This document shows positions 1,376 to 33,914 of a DNA stretch of 51,537 nucleotides, piece by piece. Origin of the DNA: an uncultured Methanosarcinales archaeon (GTDB lineage: Archaea > Halobacteriota > Methanosarcinia > Methanosarcinales > Methanocomedenaceae); the NCBI GenBank assembly GCA_965370445.1, contig CBDUUM010000001.1:1-51537 (forward strand). The letters are read 5' to 3'. Position numbers and translations under genes: made by a program. Each line of letters starts with the position of its first letter. Within the stretch, counting starts at the first letter, position 1. Below the pieces are notes generated by a model. It made no database searches. It was not told the origin of the DNA and worked only from the letters and a program-made list of their open reading frames with translations.

Positions 1376-2095
1376 ATGAACGCCCATTATTCGTCTAAAA
1401 ACCAATTTAAGTCTATTAACTATATTCTGGATGTTTTTTCATCCGATATTTTTGAGAGTGTTACATTAGTTATGCGACCGGTAATTGGCACCGTTGATTA
1501 TCTAAGATCAATGCATAGACTTTATCAGATTCAGAAGGAATTAGATCAAATTTTAAAAATGGACTTTGAAACAAGAGAAAAATTATTGGAAGCTTTAACA
1601 GATATTATTTCAATTAATATTTATGAAGACGATCTAGGAACTATCGAAAATAAACTGGAAGATCAAATAGCTATTTTCCAGGATTTTGATGAAAGTTTTA
1701 AGAAGTTAAAATCTTTTTCAACAAACTTAGAACCCCGACAGCAAACTGAACTTTTTAGAATAACTTTAAGAAAATTAAATGGAAGAATTTCATCCATTAG
1801 GGATGAGATAAAATTTAAAATATGGGATAAAACTGAAAATACCAATCAGTTATTAGTCTTAGATCAATACTTTTTCAACATTCAGGAATTGATAAAGGAA
1901 TCCTTAAAAAAGGTGGATGATGTTGATATCTGGACAATGATAAGTGTTTCATTGCTTAGAATCGAAGCTTTTCACAGAGGAAAGATTTCTTTTCAAGATC
2001 TTCAGGATGATGTAACTGATTTGAGCTTATTTAATGTAAATGAAGAATTAATCCCAAGAAATTATAATGCTGTTTTTGAAGTCTTAGAGGCTTAA
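1376..2095 (+). CDS. Hypothetical helical protein, upstream partner of the PIN-like gene
   Basis: 239-aa ORF, AT-rich. Its stop at 2093-2095 lies 1 nt before the ATG of the next ORF. No family recognised. Confidence 0.6.
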   Translation: MNAHYSSKNQFKSINYILDVFSSDIFESVTLVMRPVIGTVDYLRSMHRLYQIQKELDQILKMDFETREKLLEALTDIISINIYEDDLGTIENKLEDQIAIFQDFDESFKKLKSFSTNLEPRQQTELFRITLRKLNGRISSIRDEIKFKIWDKTENTNQLLVLDQYFFNIQELIKESLKKVDDVDIWTMISVSLLRIEAFHRGKISFQDLQDDVTDLSLFNVNEELIPRNYNAVFEVLEA

Positions 2096-2096
2096 A

Positions 2097-2789
2097 ATGA
2101 ATTTTTCTTTTGATACTAATATCATTTTAGGAATAATTAATACTAAAGATCGACTTCATGAAACATCTATAGCTTTGATGGATAATAAACGGAATGAACA
2201 ATTGTATTTATGTCATTCAGCAATCAAGGAATCCCATAACGTACTAAGAAATAAAATAAATGAAGTAATGGTTGATATTATCAGATTTCTACCTGATATT
2301 TACCAGAGCTCCAACATCAGTACATTGGATTCCCAGGCTTTTTTGATAGAGCAGTTCAAAAACTTAAGGGCTGCAAAACCAGGACTATCTAATTTTCTAA
2401 ATCTGGTATACCATGAAATCTCTATTTTTCTTAGGGACAATGAAATAGACGATCTACCTGATTTTTTATCAGAACTGTCATTAAATCTATCAAATTCGAT
2501 CATTCTTAAAATCAAAGAGACTCATCCTGACTTTGAAATATTATTCTTAAACCATGATCGGCTCAATATTGTGAAAAGATCACTTGCTGACATTCATTTT
2601 AAGGACACAAATGATGGACGGATATTTCAAGAGTTGATGACTAATCTTGAATACATAAAACCAATTGAATTCTTCCTTGACGATAGAAATTTTGCTAAGA
2701 AATGCAAGATGGGTTTTACGAATATCGCTAATGATATGGAATTTGATGATTCTGGTTTTTCCTGTAATTTAATTCAGAATAATATCTAA
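2097..2789 (+). CDS. PIN-like nuclease domain protein with a large helical insert
   Basis: N-terminal FDTNIIL (Asp6), IKESH (Glu45), FKDTNDGRIFQEL (Asp170/173) and FFLDDRNF (Asp195/196) reproduce the four acidic positions and the T.D.dF-like terminal motif of PIN domains. Confidence 0.55.
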   Translation: MNFSFDTNIILGIINTKDRLHETSIALMDNKRNEQLYLCHSAIKESHNVLRNKINEVMVDIIRFLPDIYQSSNISTLDSQAFLIEQFKNLRAAKPGLSNFLNLVYHEISIFLRDNEIDDLPDFLSELSLNLSNSIILKIKETHPDFEILFLNHDRLNIVKRSLADIHFKDTNDGRIFQELMTNLEYIKPIEFFLDDRNFAKKCKMGFTNIANDMEFDDSGFSCNLIQNNI

Positions 2790-2922
2790 ATGAAGCATTT
2801 TAGCAGATTAAATCTGACCTTTCATCATTCTATTTATTTTATCTCATTTAGGGCTCTTTCCATGACGTTATTCACCCCATACGCTGGCGATTTTATCTTT
2901 AATTGTTTTCAAATAGAACCCC

Positions 2923-3180
2923 CACCTGCAACCACCCACCCAAGCATCCATCCCCACTTCGCACCCAAATCCCACAGGAATAATCGAAAAGCGCCTGCCA
3001 GCCCCCCTCACCACAAGGGCAGATGTAGAGCAGACCGGGACGGGCACCCGGGCAGAGTAAAGGCGAGAGGGGGGACTGGAGTTCATTGGTATCTCACCGC
3101 AAAGGGCGCAAAGACCGCAAAGGATTCTACTGCACTGGCTTTGCGTCCTTTGCGATCTTTGCGGTGCAGTATTTCATAAA
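2923..3180. repeat. GC-rich repeat unit plus CGCAAAG/CTTTGCG palindrome (copy X)
   Basis: Near-identical by eye to 3520-3790. Ends in the palindrome 3095-3166: CACCGCAAAGGGCGCAAAGACCGCAAAGG...GGCTTTGCGTCCTTTGCGATCTTTGCGGTG. Confidence 0.75.
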
Positions 3181-3375
3181 TAATATATTTTAACAGCCGC
3201 CGGCAGCTAACAAACACAACAACCATTCCGCACCCCCGAACTGCCGGATGCCCATGCATCTACGAGGCACCAGTAAAGCACCTGCCAACCCCCATACCAC
3301 AAGGGCGGGCTGAGCAGATCGGGAGGGGCACCCTGTATAAGTGAACCGAAAGGGGCAGCAGAAATCATATTCATT
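3180..3375. repeat. Junction motif plus GC-rich unit (paralog of 1023-1245)
   Basis: ATAATATATTTTAACAGCCGCCGGCAGCTAACAAACA... aligns with 1023-1245 with scattered substitutions. Confidence 0.7.
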
Positions 3376-3519
3376 CTCGGCACCCTGTTTCACATTCCTG
3401 ACTCTCCGAACCCAGGCAACATGAATCAACAAGGTTGGCTGCCACCATGCCGCCCTGACGGGCTGCGGTGGCAGGGTCATTTGAATAGCAACACCCACAC
3501 CAGGCACATATCCACGCCC

Positions 3520-3790
3520 CACTTGCACCCACCCACCCAAGCATTCATCCCCATTTCGCACCCAAAGCCCTCAGGAATAATCGAAAAGCGCCTGCCAGCC
3601 CCCCTCACCACAGTGGCAGGCGGAGCATACCGAGAGGGGCACCCTGTAAAGTGAAGATAAAGGGGCGGAAGGAGAACTGAAGAAAGATGGGGGCTGGGTT
3701 TCATTATTTGGCTCACCGCGAAGGGCGCAAAGATCGCAAAGGATTTTGTTGATTTGGCTTTGCGTCCTTTGCGATGCAATATTTCATAAA
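3520..3790. repeat. GC-rich repeat unit plus CGCAAAG/CTTTGCG palindrome (copy Y)
   Basis: Direct repeat of 2923-3180; the palindrome is at 3714-3774. The track ORFs across it (3421-3654, 3477-3779) look like artefacts of the repeat. Confidence 0.75.
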
Positions 3791-3852
3791 GCCCAATGCA
3801 GAGTATTATGATGAAAAACAGACATTAAAATTAAATTATTGTTATGCTTTTC

Positions 3853-5139
3853 TTAATTGATACCTTTGAAGATTACAACACTTTCTCGAAGTTTTTGGGA
3901 GGTTGCCCCTCCATTATTCCATCGTTTTGCATTTTGATTCGAATTTCTTAAATGTCTAAAGACTATCACTTCCTCCAAATTCCAGCCTATCTTTGAACCA
4001 ATGTCTGCTAATATTAAGTCAACAGGTATCTCAACACCTGCATATGCAGACGTAGAAACAATTATCCATAATGACGCATCATCATGTGCTTTATGCTTCA
4101 ACTTTGTTAATAGATATTCCATATCTTCAAAATACGCCTGCACCATTAAAGGAATTTTTTTATTCCATAATAGCTCTTTTCTGTTTAATATTTCATTAAT
4201 ACAATTTTGATATAGAACACCAAAATCGGTCTGGACAGGTTTTTTCCAATTAATCTGGACGTGTGAACGAATTGTTTTTAACCTTAAATCATTTAACTCT
4301 TTATTGTTATTTACAAACTTTCCCAAAAACAATTCTGGCCTATATATGTCAGTATAATCAAAGGAATTGAGATAAGGGGGGGATGTAATACATAATTTAA
4401 ATTTACTATTTAAGTGAGTGTTAATTGTCTTTCTCACATCACCACTGACTAACTTTCCTTTATTATTTAATCGATAAGTTTCGACATCTTCATGTATTAC
4501 ATCAATGTTTTTCTGAAAATCATCATGAAACATGGTTTTATTGTATGAGATATTTTCCCAGTTTTTTTTGTACCTAAGACATTTTCCATCTTTTATAGCA
4601 TTTGAATTATTCATGACCGATGAGAGTAAGCTTAATCTAAATAATTTTTTTATTTCCCGTGGCAAGTTTTCAGTTGCTTGCCATCCACCCTCAAATGACC
4701 TAATAACATCAATATTGAACAGCCACTTACTTTTTTCATCACCTTCTGTAAATGTAGAGAACCCTTCAAGATTTGATTTAGCACCCTTATTTATTCCATT
4801 TAAAACTGTACTTACATGGCTCTTAAAATGATCGGGATTTACTTTAGATTGTTTAGCATTGGCAACAAATGCCAAAAATGGATTAACTTCAAATCCAATT
4901 GAGTTATAATTTAATGAACTTGCAACGAGTGGAACTGTTCCACTACCTGCAAAAGGATCAATTATTAGATCGTCTTTTCCTAAATTCGCAGAATTTATAG
5001 CTTCCTCAACTACGAGTGGTGAAAACCCTTCCTTAAAGTGGTACCATCGATGTCTTGGTAGAACTTTTGAATGATCAAAATTAGAATAATCCTTATTCGT
5101 AAATTTGTCATGTTTTTTAAATAATGTATCTAATTGCAT
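3853..5139 (-). CDS. DNA methyltransferase (N6-adenine or N4-cytosine; SPPY catalytic motif)
   Basis: The AdoMet motif I DPFAGSGT (aa 61-68, nt 4936-4959) is followed by FEVNPF. Catalytic motif IV TSPPYLNSFDY is at aa 252-262 (SPPY = nt 4372-4383). The start overlaps the upstream ORF by 10 nt. Confidence 0.85.
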   Translation of the reverse strand: MQLDTLFKKHDKFTNKDYSNFDHSKVLPRHRWYHFKEGFSPLVVEEAINSANLGKDDLIIDPFAGSGTVPLVASSLNYNSIGFEVNPFLAFVANAKQSKVNPDHFKSHVSTVLNGINKGAKSNLEGFSTFTEGDEKSKWLFNIDVIRSFEGGWQATENLPREIKKLFRLSLLSSVMNNSNAIKDGKCLRYKKNWENISYNKTMFHDDFQKNIDVIHEDVETYRLNNKGKLVSGDVRKTINTHLNSKFKLCITSPPYLNSFDYTDIYRPELFLGKFVNNNKELNDLRLKTIRSHVQINWKKPVQTDFGVLYQNCINEILNRKELLWNKKIPLMVQAYFEDMEYLLTKLKHKAHDDASLWIIVSTSAYAGVEIPVDLILADIGSKIGWNLEEVIVFRHLRNSNQNAKRWNNGGATSQKLRESVVIFKGIN

Positions 5140-6179
5140 ATTGGTTTAGCAAACATTCTAATCGGTTTTTCAAAGTTTTTAATGGTTCTAAAATATTGTT
5201 TCTCATCTGGAATGTCCAATTCTTTATCTTGATAGTACAATCCATCAGAACAATCAATTTCAGTTGTATTAGTTTTCGTCCTTCTACGACCATCAATGAC
5301 TACTAAATATCCTTTTGTAATACAAGTGGGTGTATCGCGAGCATCTAAATCAAGATATTCTTTTAATTGTACTATCCCTTCAGTGGCTCTTGAATTGGTA
5401 TATTCTGTAGCAAAATCTCCATTATCTTTTATTGATTTTCCTAACCATTTTAATTCAATTAATGCTGCTCTATTTGCTTCTTTCCAATATACTCTAACAT
5501 CAACAGGTTTGCTTGCTCCTAAGGTATATTCACGAACTGCATCCACCCCTCTCATACTACTGCTTAAATATTGTATCAAAGATTTTTGCATAGTTTCTTC
5601 AGGTCCATTTTTAAGAAAAATGTGATTACTATCACTCCAACACTCCCTAAAACAATCACATGATGAGTTCAATATTTTTTCGGTTTTGTATTTATCAAGA
5701 GCTTCTTTTAAAAAATGATATTGAAGAGAATATATACTTGAACAGATAAAATAATTAGTAATGTCAATTTTATTAGTATTGGCATAAAAATATTCTTTTT
5801 TGTTTTCATAACAATAAAACAATGCGTTTCTATTATCAAAAATATCAGTTACATCAATATTTTCCCAAAATAATAGTCTATCATCACTAGTAATTTGTAA
5901 TACAATGATCTCAGATGATTTATCTATTAAAAAATTCTTATCATATACTGTGGTAGCTTCTTCTTCATCTAAAATATTTACATTTTCAAGCGTCGTATAA
6001 ATAATTAATTTACCATCAAAATGACTTGGTTCTAAATACCTATAAATATCCTGAACTGCTTTAGTCAATTTGGTGGTTAAAGGAATAATAGCGCTATTAT
6101 TATCAAATGCTTTATAGATCTCTAGCGTATAATTTTCTTTTCTAATTTTATCAACAAGATTTTGGTCGGGCATATTCAC
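5130..6179 (-). CDS. Hypothetical protein with a C-terminal PD-(D/E)xK-like nuclease motif (candidate effector)
   Basis: The string PEETMQKS...KPVDVRVYWKEANRAALIELKWLGK...GIVQLKEY (D227, E242, K244; nt about 5448-5501) fits the E-D-ExK-Q pattern of restriction-endonuclease folds. The N-terminal ~190 aa are unassigned. There is a 4-nt start/stop overlap with the upstream ORF. Confidence 0.55.
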   Translation of the reverse strand: MNMPDQNLVDKIRKENYTLEIYKAFDNNSAIIPLTTKLTKAVQDIYRYLEPSHFDGKLIIYTTLENVNILDEEEATTVYDKNFLIDKSSEIIVLQITSDDRLLFWENIDVTDIFDNRNALFYCYENKKEYFYANTNKIDITNYFICSSIYSLQYHFLKEALDKYKTEKILNSSCDCFRECWSDSNHIFLKNGPEETMQKSLIQYLSSSMRGVDAVREYTLGASKPVDVRVYWKEANRAALIELKWLGKSIKDNGDFATEYTNSRATEGIVQLKEYLDLDARDTPTCITKGYLVVIDGRRRTKTNTTEIDCSDGLYYQDKELDIPDEKQYFRTIKNFEKPIRMFAKPICN

Positions 6180-6769
6180 TCCCCGGAACTTAATAATATT
6201 TCATTAATATAATTCACCCAAGTGATTGCAGGAATAATTAAATCATCACTTGGAGCACCAACAGCTTCGCTTATCTCTTGGAATTTTTTATATGTATCAG
6301 ATTGGTTAAGCCAATTATTCCCGTTTATTATCTTATTTTTGTTGATTTCAGGGTCATTTAATAATGCTCGAATTGTTTGAGAATAAGGAACTAAAATATT
6401 TGTTGTACAAGAAGCATTTAAATATTCTTCGCGTGCACTTAAAGTAGCCAATTTCTTAAATTTATTAAATTCATCCGTTCCTCGAGAAGTAATTAAATAA
6501 AAGTCTCCACGTTTATCGAAAAGTCCATTTTTTATATGACGTTGTATTGCGGAGTTTAAGTCACTAGAAAAGGGGTAGCCATCTGTATCTATAATAAATT
6601 TATATTTCCAATCAGATATAGCATTTCCCTTGTATAGATATAAAATAGATGAAAAATAAGAAAAAAGATGAACCTCTTCTAACCTGAAACCATCCAATAT
6701 ATCATCCAACTTATGAGCTAAAGATAAGCTATCATAAAAAGTTTCTGGCAGAACTTGTGTGCTATTCAT
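6176..6769 (-). CDS. Small hypothetical protein (candidate middle component, possible winged-helix region)
   Basis: 197-aa ORF with 4-nt overlaps on both sides. The segment GYPFSSDLNSAIQRHIKNGLFDKRGDFYLITSRG looks wHTH-like. Its position between the ATPase and the nuclease resembles the middle components of ABC-3C/Lamassu systems. Confidence 0.45.
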   Translation of the reverse strand: MNSTQVLPETFYDSLSLAHKLDDILDGFRLEEVHLFSYFSSILYLYKGNAISDWKYKFIIDTDGYPFSSDLNSAIQRHIKNGLFDKRGDFYLITSRGTDEFNKFKKLATLSAREEYLNASCTTNILVPYSQTIRALLNDPEINKNKIINGNNWLNQSDTYKKFQEISEAVGAPSDDLIIPAITWVNYINEILLSSGE

Positions 6770-8745
6770 TTCGAACTCCCGTTTAAAGCATTTTCAATAT
6801 TACTATAGACTTGTTCAAAAAGTTTTTCGCCTTCCTGTTGAATAATTGATAAATCCGTCCAATCAAGCATTCTTTTAAACTGCATTTTTGATTTTCCACA
6901 TTTGTTTGCTAGTGAAATCAGTAGTTGTGATGCATTAATGTTAGCAGTCATAAATATATTTTGATTATAATCTTTTACAAAATATGCAAACATCTCACCG
7001 GCTCTACTTTCATAAGCAATATCTAAGGAACCTTCAGGGGTATCAATAAGCATTGTGGCTTCATTAGATTGTTTTGATAAATAAATAGCTAATGACATTC
7101 TTAAAGCAATATCTAAGAAAAATCTTTGACTTTCAGACAAATGTGAACTATCTGTTCTTGCAGTATCTTTTAATTCAAGTATCAATTTCATATTTCGATT
7201 TTTGTCTGAAAAATTAATAATTAAATCATAACCTATAAAGCTTTTTGCTAATTTTTGAAAGATAGGGACAAAATCAACTTCTGCTTCTTTATAAGCACTT
7301 TCAATTTTAGCTTGTAATAAATCATAATCTGGTTGCAATTCATCTCTTTCTTTATATTTTTCTTTAGAAATCTTATCAAATTCATCAAATTGTTCTTTAT
7401 ATGCTTTTACGACAGAATCAATACTTTCATTTCCTGTGGTTTTCGACGAAATGAATGGATTATTTTTTTCAAATAAATCTTTCTGTTTATCAATCTCAAT
7501 AAATTCATATTCGACTTTTTCGAACTCAAGCTTTTTATCAGATGACTTTAGTGTAATATTTTCAAGTTCATTGTTGCGTCTTGATATTTTATCGTCATTC
7601 TTTTCAATTTCTACTAATAATTGATTTTGTTCCTGCTCTTTATTGTCATTAATTTTGGTATTGCATAACGGACAATTTTCTTTATATAAGTTATTTTGAA
7701 TTGATTCTATTATCTGCTCACTTTTTGCACCGCAAACGATACATTCTTTCTTAGAAAGAGACATATTTATATATGCATTATTTAATAATTTAGAACGAGG
7801 TTCAGAATATATTGAGAACAGTTTTGTATGTTCTATACGCAGATGCAGAATCTCGGAATTCAAATAACTTTGCTTTTTTAGCAATGTATCATATTCAATT
7901 TTTACATTATGATATTCATTTTTAATTGCTTCATGTTCTTTAAGCAAATATTTATAATCTATTTTTATAGTTTCTTTATCTGTATTCCCTTCATAATTAC
8001 TAATAAGATTTTCTCTTTTTTTATCAATTTGTGTTGCTTGCCATCTACTATTTCTAGCATCAGATTCAAGTTTGTCCATTTTTCGCTTAATAGTAATAAG
8101 TTTCTCTGCATCTTCTGTGTTAGTATTGAAAGCAATAGATAGAGTATGGGATGAAGCATGTTTATCCCAAAATATCATTCTTCTATTTTCATCAAAAGTT
8201 AGAACATAAAGTTGTAAAAATATAAAGTATTCAAAATTATTTATGCCGATGTCGTTTGTAATTTCAGTTTCATATTTATTTTTGAGTTCTTTTGGGGTGA
8301 GATTCTCTGTAGATATGAATGGAATTTTATTATTATTATTATCGATTTTGAATATTTCTAAATATCTAAGAGAATCGATTTCAAAAAATCCACGTATAAA
8401 CTTATAATATTTATTATTAATTTTAAGAGAAATTTCGATTTCAGCATTTTTTTTATCAACAATTCTACCGTCGAAATATCTGCTAGTAAATCTCTTGTTC
8501 ACTTGAACGATTTCTTGTGGAGATAATACTTCTTTATTTGGTGCAAGAACTATCCCGGTAAGGCCATAATTTAAAGCATTGAGAAAAGTCGTTTTACCAA
8601 GCCCATTAGCTCCAGCTAAACAATAAACTCCCTCATCAATTTTCTCGTTAATTTCATAAACTTCCCCGTTTTTAGAGAAAAGAGAAAAATTTCTAATTAT
8701 TATATTTTCGACTTTAGGAAAGTTATATTTACTCATATTATTCAA
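6766..8745 (-). CDS. SMC/Rad50-like ABC ATPase with a coiled-coil insert and a double-CxxC zinc-hook-like motif
   Basis: Walker A GANGLGKTT (aa 45-53, nt 8587-8613). Long K/E-rich helical region aa ~210-500 containing CIVC...CPLC (aa 335-361, nt 7663-7743). Signature-like LSESQ (aa 536-540). Walker B/D-loop MLIDTPEGSLD (aa 565-575). Confidence 0.8.
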   Translation of the reverse strand: MNNMSKYNFPKVENIIIRNFSLFSKNGEVYEINEKIDEGVYCLAGANGLGKTTFLNALNYGLTGIVLAPNKEVLSPQEIVQVNKRFTSRYFDGRIVDKKNAEIEISLKINNKYYKFIRGFFEIDSLRYLEIFKIDNNNNKIPFISTENLTPKELKNKYETEITNDIGINNFEYFIFLQLYVLTFDENRRMIFWDKHASSHTLSIAFNTNTEDAEKLITIKRKMDKLESDARNSRWQATQIDKKRENLISNYEGNTDKETIKIDYKYLLKEHEAIKNEYHNVKIEYDTLLKKQSYLNSEILHLRIEHTKLFSIYSEPRSKLLNNAYINMSLSKKECIVCGAKSEQIIESIQNNLYKENCPLCNTKINDNKEQEQNQLLVEIEKNDDKISRRNNELENITLKSSDKKLEFEKVEYEFIEIDKQKDLFEKNNPFISSKTTGNESIDSVVKAYKEQFDEFDKISKEKYKERDELQPDYDLLQAKIESAYKEAEVDFVPIFQKLAKSFIGYDLIINFSDKNRNMKLILELKDTARTDSSHLSESQRFFLDIALRMSLAIYLSKQSNEATMLIDTPEGSLDIAYESRAGEMFAYFVKDYNQNIFMTANINASQLLISLANKCGKSKMQFKRMLDWTDLSIIQQEGEKLFEQVYSNIENALNGSSK

Positions 8746-8759
8746 TCAACCTCATATTA

Positions 8760-8810
8760 TTTTCACTATAAATAGTATACTTTACAAAAATCATTCAATT
8801 ATATAACACT
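8760..8810 (-). promoter_or_regulatory. Candidate archaeal promoter region for the four-gene operon
   Basis: On the minus strand there are TATA-like TATTTATAG (plus 8765-8773) and TTATATAA (about 8797-8806). GAGGT lies about 11 nt upstream of the ATG at 8745. Confidence 0.25.
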
Positions 8811-8913
8811 TATTAATTGATAACATAGTACGTAAACCATATCAAAAAAAGATAATGGAGCAGATAAATACCTGCTCCAAACACACCCATTAATGTCGTA
8901 TTCATATCCTCTA

Positions 8914-9113: not shown

Positions 9114-9900
<787 letters not shown>

Positions 9901-9910
9901 CATCATACCT

Positions 9911-9985
9911 CCCGGGCTGGTGCAGGCGCAGACCGAGGGTGGGAAATTGATGGAAGCTGTTTTGCACCACAAGCAGGCGGAGTGA
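9911..9985 (+). repeat. Second copy of the hsdS-tail fragment (direct repeat of 788-861)
   Basis: CCGGGCTGGTGCAGGCGCAGACCGAGGGTGGGAAATTGATGGAAGCTGT... aligns with 788-861 with a few substitutions. It translates to PGLVQAQTEGGKLMEAVLHH. Confidence 0.6.
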
Positions 9986-10084
9986 TAGATAAAGGAGAAA
10001 TACAATTCCTAAGTGAAAAGTGAATCAAGTTAGACTTCACATAAAGTAAAAAAAATAAAATAAGGGTCTGACACCTTATTTTTT

Positions 10085-10507: not shown

Positions 10508-11428
10508 ATGGAATCCCATATACTCATAGACTCATACGGCCGCAAAATAACAAGCCTGCGCGTATCAATAACCAGTAAATGCAATCTTAACTGTTTCTAC
10601 TGCCACAATGAAGGGCAGAGCGGCTATGAGGTAGAAATGAGTGTGGACCTTATTATCAGGATCATCAACAAGGCCGTCACCCTGGGTGTAACAAAAGTGA
10701 AGTTCTCAGGAGGTGAGCCATTGGTCAGGAAGGATTTCGAGGAAATACTCACAAGGCTTCCCAAACTTCGAAATGTTTCAGCCACAACAAACGGGGTGCT
10801 GTTATCCAAAAGAGCCAAAGGGCTAAAAGCAGCCGGACTTGACCGGGTTAATATCAGCCTTGATACACTTAACCCTGATACCTATGCTAAAATATGCGGG
10901 TGCAGCAGTAACATCCATCAGCAGGTACTGGACGGGGTATATGCTGCAGTGGATGCAGGGTTGACACCGATCAAGCTGAATATGGTGATGCTGGAAGGTG
11001 TCAATTCCGGTGAAATTAATGACATGATCTCTTTTATAAAGAATTTCGATAGGAACGTGATCCTGCAAATAATCGAACCCATGGACTTTAGCAATGACGG
11101 ATTGCTCATGGAAATGGATACCATTACGAAAGAACTGGAATCCAGGGCAACATCTGTGATCGAGCGCAAGATGCACCGCAGGAAGAAATACATGGTGGAT
11201 GGTGCAGAAATTGAACTCGTGAAGCCTATTGATAATTCAGTGTTCTGTGCCAACTGCAACCGGCTAAGGGTGACATCTGACGGTAAACTAAAGCCCTGCC
11301 TGTTGAGAAATGACAACCTTGTGGATGTAAGCCATGCCAGTGACAGTGAGCTTGAAGCTTTGTTCTATAAAGCAATGGAAAATCGTGAACCTTTCTATAA
11401 AGGCAAGCCTCAGGAAGTCAGTGCGTAA
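10508..11428 (+). CDS. moaA: GTP 3',8-cyclase (Moco biosynthesis, radical SAM)
   Basis: CNLNCFYCH radical-SAM cluster motif, GGEPL, C-terminal CANCNRLRVTSDGKLKPCL. Confidence 0.9.
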   Translation: MESHILIDSYGRKITSLRVSITSKCNLNCFYCHNEGQSGYEVEMSVDLIIRIINKAVTLGVTKVKFSGGEPLVRKDFEEILTRLPKLRNVSATTNGVLLSKRAKGLKAAGLDRVNISLDTLNPDTYAKICGCSSNIHQQVLDGVYAAVDAGLTPIKLNMVMLEGVNSGEINDMISFIKNFDRNVILQIIEPMDFSNDGLLMEMDTITKELESRATSVIERKMHRRKKYMVDGAEIELVKPIDNSVFCANCNRLRVTSDGKLKPCLLRNDNLVDVSHASDSELEALFYKAMENREPFYKGKPQEVSA

Positions 11429-33609: not shown

Positions 33610-33914
33610 GTTTCGTTATCTCCTAATTAGTTTCCAGGTTTCACGGTTCAGCCCTTGAAGGGGCTACATTCCTGCGGGACGTATCCCGCCTATGAAACTG
33701 GCATGTAGTGAGAGAATTATAGATACCTTAATGGGTAATAAAGGTTGGGGATGGAATTTGGTACCACACACTGCCTCACAATCTACTGAAAAAATAGTAC
33801 GCTCGTTTGCGCTTCGGGCTGTGGCTGCCGATACTCAGGAACTCGGCACAGCACTTCTCAAGGTGAAATAACCCCACTAAAAAAAACCAAGGCATCCTCA
33901 AGTCCTGACCGGAC

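Follow-up and report, generated by a model that had tools for sequence, protein, structure and literature searches.

Can an ATPase of the SMC/Rad50 type, of the kind that surveys DNA by its shape or ends, be joined to the chemical self-marking of a restriction–modification (R-M) system? The question is raised by four genes on the minus strand (3853-8745) of a 51,537-nt stretch of contig CBDUUM010000001.1 from an uncultured Methanosarcinales archaeon, a stretch that is called the window here. These genes encode an SMC/Rad50-like ATPase, a small middle protein, a nuclease, and a DNA methyltransferase (MTase). Collectively, our analyses favor, with a probability of about 60%, a reading in which the four genes form a mobile immune cassette that acts like an R-M system and has a restriction arm built on the SMC/Rad50-type ATPase. 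The initial annotation of the locus had likened it to the Lamassu/ABC-3C systems and had raised, as an alternative, that the SMC protein might stand in for the helicase or translocase of a new kind of ATP-dependent restriction system. It is the alternative that we favor, and the four proteins contain no helicase or HsdS domain.

The four genes are inherited together. Scanning one genome per species recovered 25 loci with a relative of the nuclease from about ten phyla, with representatives in Methanosarcinaceae, Bacteroidota, Chlorobiota, Acidobacteriota, WOR-3, Campylobacterota, Desulfobacterota (Syntrophobacteraceae), Binatia, and Chloroflexota; the nearest copy of the cassette lies in a Methanosarcinaceae metagenome-assembled genome (MAG). 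When tblastn was combined with all-versus-all clustering of open reading frames (ORFs), exactly four gene clusters recurred across the 25 loci, and they are the cassette's own. At 21 loci the cassette is complete, in the order ATPase–middle protein–nuclease–MTase, including one (L024) in which the ATPase is split into two ORFs; among the four incomplete loci, L016 is cut by a contig end and L014, L019, and L023 are decayed. The middle gene always lies between the ATPase and nuclease genes in these close relatives, and the four proteins show correlated pairwise identities (r 0.56-0.94), with the MTase the most conserved and slowest evolving of the four. Methanosarcinaceae and Bacteroidota copies are 55-80% identical, the overall distribution is patchy, and the cassette is mobile, having spread by horizontal transfer. 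Its context is that of a low-G+C island, often adjoining integrases, relaxases, toxin–antitoxin genes, or an Mrr gene.

The association extends to distant relatives in which the genes have been rearranged. A prophage variant (L041; IMG/VR UViG_3300030433_003509, 36 kb) carries the order MTase–ATPase–middle protein–nuclease at 3728-8747, with an ATPase 31% identical to that of the window, directly ahead of baseplate and tail-fibre genes, a site that is typical for phage-carried defense cargo; a fragment of a second DNA MTase is found there at 2958-3731. A distant proteobacterial clade of at least 296 clusters, which includes Burkholderia (among them B. pseudomallei), Ralstonia, Lysobacter, and Azospirillum, has an ATPase of 665-675 aa (about 23% identical to that of the window), a middle protein of 202-233 aa, a third protein of 300-363 aa, and an MTase (30-33% identical) that is encoded on the opposite strand, mostly convergent with the gene for the third protein and with overlapping 3′ ends. 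The MTase was linked in all seven distinct loci of this clade that were examined, metagenome loci included. The third protein has an invariant D...ELK motif and aligned with the window nuclease family in hhalign at a moderate probability of 73% (E 3e-5, from small alignments), and by this comparison the two are homologous; the middle proteins gave a weak hhalign match (E 0.011, again from small alignments). Two proteobacterial loci, L032 (1946-11916) and L038 (6170-14969), each contain two paralogous trios, about 27% identical to each other, and a single MTase, the trios being in tandem in L038 and flanking the MTase in L032. From this arrangement, the trios of the restriction arm look like modular units that read a single methylation mark. 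Restriction and modification genes typically stay linked through rearrangement, and because the linkage outlasts inversion and reordering across large distances, it is strong evidence that the four components are joined in function. Whether the adjacency of the MTase might be fortuitous, a concern raised at the outset, is thereby settled: it is conserved in 21 of 25 close loci, in seven of seven distant proteobacterial loci, and in four arrangements, and chance proximity is ruled out.

At the window itself, the four ORFs of the initial annotation were reproduced exactly. The ATPase is encoded at 8745..6766 (659 aa), the middle protein at 6769..6176 (197 aa), the nuclease at 6179..5130 (349 aa), and the MTase at 5139..3853 (428 aa), all on the minus strand, as are the motifs located below. 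The AT-rich block that had been pointed out is an island of 29.1% G+C inside a contig with 45.3% G+C over positions 10508-51537. Because each gene has hundreds of homologs, the cassette genes are real. Overlaps of 4, 4, and 10 nt had been proposed for the three junctions, and the first and last of these stand as read from the sequence: the ATPase and middle genes share an ATGA, with GGAG 7 nt upstream, and the nuclease and MTase genes overlap by 10 nt at ATGCAATTAG. The 4-nt overlap between the middle and nuclease genes, however, requires a GTG start. An alternative ATG at 6173, two codons downstream, has GGGGAG at the proper spacing, fits the N termini of homologs (MPDQ/MSDQ), and is where gene callers place the start, which would give a nuclease of 347 aa; because all of these features favor it, a 2-nt gap at this junction is more likely. 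The ATPase, too, probably starts at an ATG (8736, giving 656 aa), as in the gene callers' output, instead of at the TTG at 8745. These are minor corrections that leave the operon-like packing intact, and this packing, combined with the status of the four genes as the only set co-inherited in relatives, bears out the proposal that they are a single unit.

The ATPase displays the motifs of an SMC/Rad50-type ATP-binding cassette (ABC) protein. These comprise Walker A (GANGLGKT, containing K51; 8593-8616), a four-cysteine CxxC...CxxC apex in the middle of a long insert (C335, C338, C358, and C361; 7663-7743), the ABC signature SESQ (7126-7137), and Walker B (LIDTPE; 7033-7050); in 19 homologs the Walker A motif, the four cysteines, LSESQ, LIDTPEG, and Q178 are invariant. 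The sole strong match in PADLOC was to the LmuB model PDLC03859 (E 7.4e-19, residues 13-582 on model positions 6-553 of 611), a model that carries no curated cut-off, and the remaining LmuB models cover the protein partially, mostly at the P-loop. Pfam returned MukB, SMC_N, AAA_29, and AAA_23, all below threshold, and a PDB profile search gave marginal matches to Rad50, at the P-loop and the signature, in both halves of the head. According to a 2025 phylogenomic study of Lamassu, short LmuB proteins have a Walker B of the form hhhhD[Q/S/T/E] and carry either no CxxC motif or up to two of them. The window ATPase, with about 660 aa, a LIDT Walker B, and two CxxC motifs, fits these traits and is LmuB-like, in keeping with its original description as an SMC-like ABC ATPase with a coiled-coil insert.

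The nuclease and the middle protein belong to families that lack annotation in Pfam, NCBIfam, and PADLOC. The AlphaFold model of the 349-aa protein (predicted local distance difference test score, pLDDT, 92) has an α/β N-terminal domain followed by a C-terminal PD-(D/E)xK domain, and the catalytic residues D227...E242-x-K244 (5448-5501) are invariant in 29 homologs, upholding the initial assignment to this fold. Foldseek comparison of the model with the PDB gave weak matches, all of them restriction-fold nucleases (SfsA, Hjc, PaqCI, and the Avs3 nuclease), and no convincing structural relatives of the N-terminal domain, which is also poorly conserved across the family. The family comprises 495 representatives at 50% identity, all of about 350 aa. 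None of the members in its alignment has a Pfam family at E<=1, the window copy has no match in NCBIfam or PADLOC, and the LmuA models of PADLOC do not match it. The 197-aa middle protein is modeled (pLDDT 89.7) with a winged-helix-like N-terminal half and a helical C-terminal half, for which Foldseek against the PDB found weak PadR/MarR-type neighbors only. No Pfam family, the ABC-3C middle-component models included, was found in any of 34 members, and the window copy has no match in NCBIfam or PADLOC, including its LmuC models; a “Panacea/SocA” label carried by one homolog in UniRef was not reproduced by Pfam. LmuC has been reported to be too divergent for sequence-based methods, and short LmuC to resemble helix-turn-helix (HTH) regulators. 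The HTH-like fold predicted for the 197-aa protein is therefore best described as a likeness to short LmuC, not a match, and the protein is presumed to be an adaptor or DNA-contact subunit. Sequence and profile searches of the PDB with the middle and nuclease proteins gave no useful match, and Foldseek with their models found no Lamassu, Wadjet, or other defense chain in a PDB copy whose Lamassu content is unconfirmed.

The MTase matches Pfam PF01555 above threshold (E 2.8e-14) and, over nearly its full length, the PADLOC model MTase_II PDLC03224 (E 4e-60). Motif I (DPFAGSGT at residue 61; 4936-4959) precedes motif IV (SPPY at residue 253; 4372-4383), and DPFxGSGT and SPPY are invariant in 18 cassettes. 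All the residues that the initial annotation had named as functionally important (K51, D227/E242/K244, and SPPY) are thus invariant among homologs. SPPY in amino-MTases favors N4-cytosine over N6-adenine as the target, and the protein is predicted to be an amino-MTase, probably one that acts on N4 of cytosine. The combination by which Type II R-M systems are recognized, an MTase with S-adenosylmethionine-binding and catalytic motifs linked to a restriction-fold nuclease, is present in the cassette.

In the mechanism that we infer from these features, the MTase would mark host DNA, probably with N4-methylcytosine (m4C), at a motif conserved throughout the family. A dimer of the LmuB-like ATPase, with its coiled coil and four-cysteine zinc apex, would form an ATP-dependent complex with the winged-helix protein and the nuclease, and this complex would survey DNA much as Lamassu, Rad50, or Wadjet do and cut DNA that is unmarked, methylation serving as the signal of self and the whole serving in defense. 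The retention of an ATPase and a middle protein with intact motifs argues against a nuclease that acts as an autonomous endonuclease. A more specific claim is that the cassette represents an unrecognized class of R-M-type immunity, in which a short-LmuB-like complex is paired with a dedicated and probably m4C-forming MTase as self mark, which has spread horizontally across Bacteria, Archaea, and prophages, and which has variants with a shared MTase; we regard the odds of this fuller claim as even.

The pattern of decay is as R-M logic predicts, with the restriction arm broken four times and the MTase alone once. At L014 the ATPase and middle protein are gone and the nuclease is truncated, at L024 and in an Azospirillum locus (L033) the ATPase is split, and in all three the MTase is intact. 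The fourth case, from a metagenome sample (L028), is identical to the window cassette over 5.4 kb but for a single substitution, a nonsense change that breaks the ATPase (438-2408, corresponding to window positions 6766-8745) into ORFs of 422 and 190 aa and leaves the MTase intact, a naturally occurring knock-out of the restriction arm. At L019 the whole cassette is decayed.

Several observations weigh against an R-M-like function. The decay counts are small, and the one exception is the chief observation against this logic: at L023, in a Binatia MAG (10945-11200), the MTase is cut to about 60 N-terminal residues and the trio retains all catalytic motifs. If its restriction activity were intact, this trio would be expected to kill its host unless another MTase is encoded elsewhere in the genome; such an MTase, a recent event, or a mis-assembly are possible causes. 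The MTase family, unlike most R-M systems, whose specificities diversify, has no hypervariable target-recognition region. Because that region is missing, the sequences suggest a single methylation motif conserved family-wide, and discrimination could go by the density of marks, as in BREX, instead of by site-specific cleavage. In addition, no subunit is singled out as the reader of methylation state, for which the N-terminal domain of the nuclease, the winged-helix protein, and the MTase itself are candidates, and the nuclease gave no matches in plasmid and isolate-phage collections.

The explanation that competes best with an R-M-like cassette, and one that we consider doubtful, is abortive infection of the Lamassu type. 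Here the ATPase would sense the ends of phage DNA, or intermediates of its replication, and free the nuclease to kill the cell, and the MTase would be an accessory that, for example, restrains autoimmunity or regulates the operon epigenetically. The LmuB match and short-LmuB hallmarks of the ATPase speak for it, as does the resemblance of an ATPase, a small HTH-like protein, and a nuclease to the reported Lamassu layout; over-expressed Lamassu is toxic according to published work, so that a protective partner is conceivable, and the loss of the MTase is tolerated at L023. Against this, neither the middle protein nor the nuclease is matched by an LmuC or LmuA model, and published surveys of Lamassu, including one of more than 3,800 systems, mention no MTase, in agreement with the initial annotation, which had seen a co-translated MTase as foreign to these systems. 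A DNA MTase that is obligately linked within a defense operon, moreover, has no established role other than self-marking.

Less probable by some distance is a reversed or guard logic, in which methylated DNA is the target of the complex, or in which the complex keeps watch over the MTase and is triggered when phage anti-restriction proteins inhibit it, as in PrrC/EcoprrI. There are precedents for both forms: published discussion of PrrC holds that ABC ATPases inside R-M loci can be guards, and Ambrosia, a reported RM-like system, consists of an MTase and a modification-dependent nuclease. In the window, however, the MTase is co-transcribed and translationally coupled with the nuclease, so that a methyl-directed nuclease would hit the host, and no primary restriction enzyme is conserved nearby that could be guarded. 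Equally improbable is a non-immune role, whether as an SbcCD/Rad50-like repair or chromosome-maintenance module with an epigenetic MTase, for which the marginal similarity to Rad50 and a published proposal that LmuB-type proteins descend from SbcCD might be cited, or as a purely selfish addiction cassette, given that R-M-like cassettes can persist through post-segregational killing alone: the patchy, horizontally driven distribution in low-G+C islands, mobile-element contexts, and a prophage, the frequent pseudogenization, and the lack of an Mre11/SbcD partner in profile scans and neighborhoods all stand against it.

Sequence and composition suggest where the edges of the island lie. Upstream of the ATPase, an AT-rich region on the minus strand (8746..8880) contains a TATA-like TTATATAA at 8799-8806 and TTTATA at 8767-8772, with a break in composition near 8880, and is presumed to hold a putative promoter and the 5′ edge of the island. 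Beyond the MTase stop codon, a T-rich tail in the sequence (3795..3852, minus strand) abuts a G+C-rich repeat and is presumed to be a putative terminator and the 3′ island edge. G+C-rich repeat units at 700-1250, 2870-3340, 3480-3790, and 9912-9986, made up of blocks of 63-163 nt with 85-92% identity, flank this cassette and a second AT-rich cassette and occur nowhere else in the window, a layout reminiscent of a cassette array or a hotspot of recombination. The 75-nt repeat copies at 788-862 and 9912-9986 encode ...LVQAQT(D/E)GGKLMEAV..., which we take to be like the conserved C terminus of HsdS; no profile confirmed the likeness. The second cassette (1376-2789, plus strand, 29.7% G+C) consists of two adjacent genes for proteins of 239 and 230 aa, neither with a match in Pfam, NCBIfam, PADLOC, or the PDB. 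The 230-aa protein opens with a PIN-like FDTNIIL motif, its membership in that family being unverified, and the pair does not accompany the four-gene system in other genomes. At 9114-10005 (minus strand), a pyridoxal phosphate enzyme of the methionine-gamma-lyase/cystathionine-synthase type is left as two fragments that cover model positions ~56-170 and ~290-391 of ~390, with the N terminus and the middle missing; it is a native gene that decayed at the island edge. The defense-island setting that had been described, with an hsdS remnant, a PIN cassette, and decayed native genes, holds for this pseudogene, whereas its PIN and hsdS parts lack profile support. The only Rfam match in the window is an eL15-Euryarchaeota ribosomal-protein leader (33640-33688, minus strand, 48.1 bits), and no tRNA genes were found in the window. 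This leader and the nearest cassette copy, in Methanosarcinaceae, both agree with the archaeal nature of the contig.

Profile searches against PADLOC, Pfam, and NCBIfam matched only the ATPase and the MTase to families, leaving two of the four protein families new to these collections, and they returned no described system of this composition. Nor was a description found in the full-text literature, a search whose scope left out REBASE, DefenseFinder, and the primary description of ABC-3C; the chance that the system is already catalogued outside the literature and databases covered is roughly one in four. As far as can be told, an architecture that joins an SMC-type ATPase to R-M-like self-marking is undescribed. 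If the R-M-like reading is true, then the cassette would make it tractable to study what keeps SMC-like complexes away from the host chromosome, and the enzyme toolbox would gain a new nuclease–MTase pair, ATP-dependent and perhaps specific for m4C. Its carriers include Burkholderia pseudomallei, Ralstonia, Bacteroidales, and methanogens, where unrecognized restriction barriers hinder genetic manipulation.

How does the cassette compare with known systems? In its working it would be most like Lamassu joined to R-M. It is closest in its parts to Lamassu type II/ABC-3C (LmuA–LmuC–LmuB; DdmABC of Vibrio cholerae), with which it shares an ATPase of about 660 aa that has the hhhhD[T] Walker B and, as in some short LmuB proteins, two CxxC motifs, an approximately 200-aa protein whose predicted fold is HTH-like, as reported for short LmuC, and a nuclease effector. 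It differs in its fourth part, the obligately linked DNA MTase, in its gene order, which is B-C-A compared with A-C-B in Lamassu, a departure that the initial annotation had recognized, and in its nuclease, whose catalytic domain is C-terminal, behind a novel α/β domain, whereas LmuA has an N-terminal effector and a C-terminal domain that binds LmuB. Together with the failure of any LmuA model to match, these differences do not sustain the membership in Lamassu/ABC-3C that had first been proposed; the LmuC and ABC-3C middle-component models gave no match either, in a comparison by sequence for which LmuC is reported to be too divergent.

Other systems that combine an MTase, an ATPase, and nuclease-type partners in a mobile cassette, with self-marking presumed, are BREX, DISARM, MADS, and Hma, but the signatures of these systems and of Dnd/Pbe (PglZ and BrxC/BrxL; DrmA/B; mad1-8; the Hma helicase; DndB-E and PbeABCD) are absent here. 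Weak partial PADLOC matches to PbeC, mad3 (9e-4), and mad2 (2e-5), with E values of 1e-5 to 1e-3, involve the N terminus of the ATPase or motif I of the MTase only, and MADS, Hma, BREX, DISARM, Dnd/Pbe, Septu, Gabija, and Wadjet were rejected on the ground that their PADLOC matches are at the level of the P-loop. Wadjet (JetABCD) and SbcCD/Rad50–Mre11 resemble the cassette in pairing an SMC-family ATPase with a nuclease that acts on DNA known by its shape or ends, and Rad50/SbcC also has a CxxC zinc motif at the apex of its coiled coil. The coiled coil of the cassette ATPase is, however, much shorter than in either. No kleisin, KITE, or Toprim protein (JetA/B/D) was matched, and the ATPase has about 660 aa compared with about 1100 aa for the MukB-like JetC; relative to SbcCD/Rad50, the cassette lacks an Mre11/SbcD phosphoesterase, has two CxxC motifs per chain, and includes an MTase.

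In its genetics the cassette resembles the ATP-dependent and multi-subunit R-M systems (Types I and III, and the BsuMI/LlaJI-like Type II systems): an MTase is passed on as one unit with a PD-(D/E)xK nuclease, the modification and restriction genes may run in the same direction, converge, or diverge, conservation is higher in the MTase than in the restriction genes, and the latter decay first. In contrast to these, it has no superfamily 2 helicase or translocase (HsdR, Res), HsdS, or McrB-type GTPase in profile scans or neighborhoods; its NTPase is an SMC/Rad50-type ABC protein with a coiled coil and zinc apex, and its MTase has no variable target-recognition region. SMC-family defenses such as Lamassu and Wadjet are thought to recognize DNA by shape, ends, or replication state, whereas R-M, BREX, and DISARM use chemical marks. 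A cassette in which an SMC-type sensor works with a methylation mark would, if our reading is true, bridge these two strategies for telling self from nonself.

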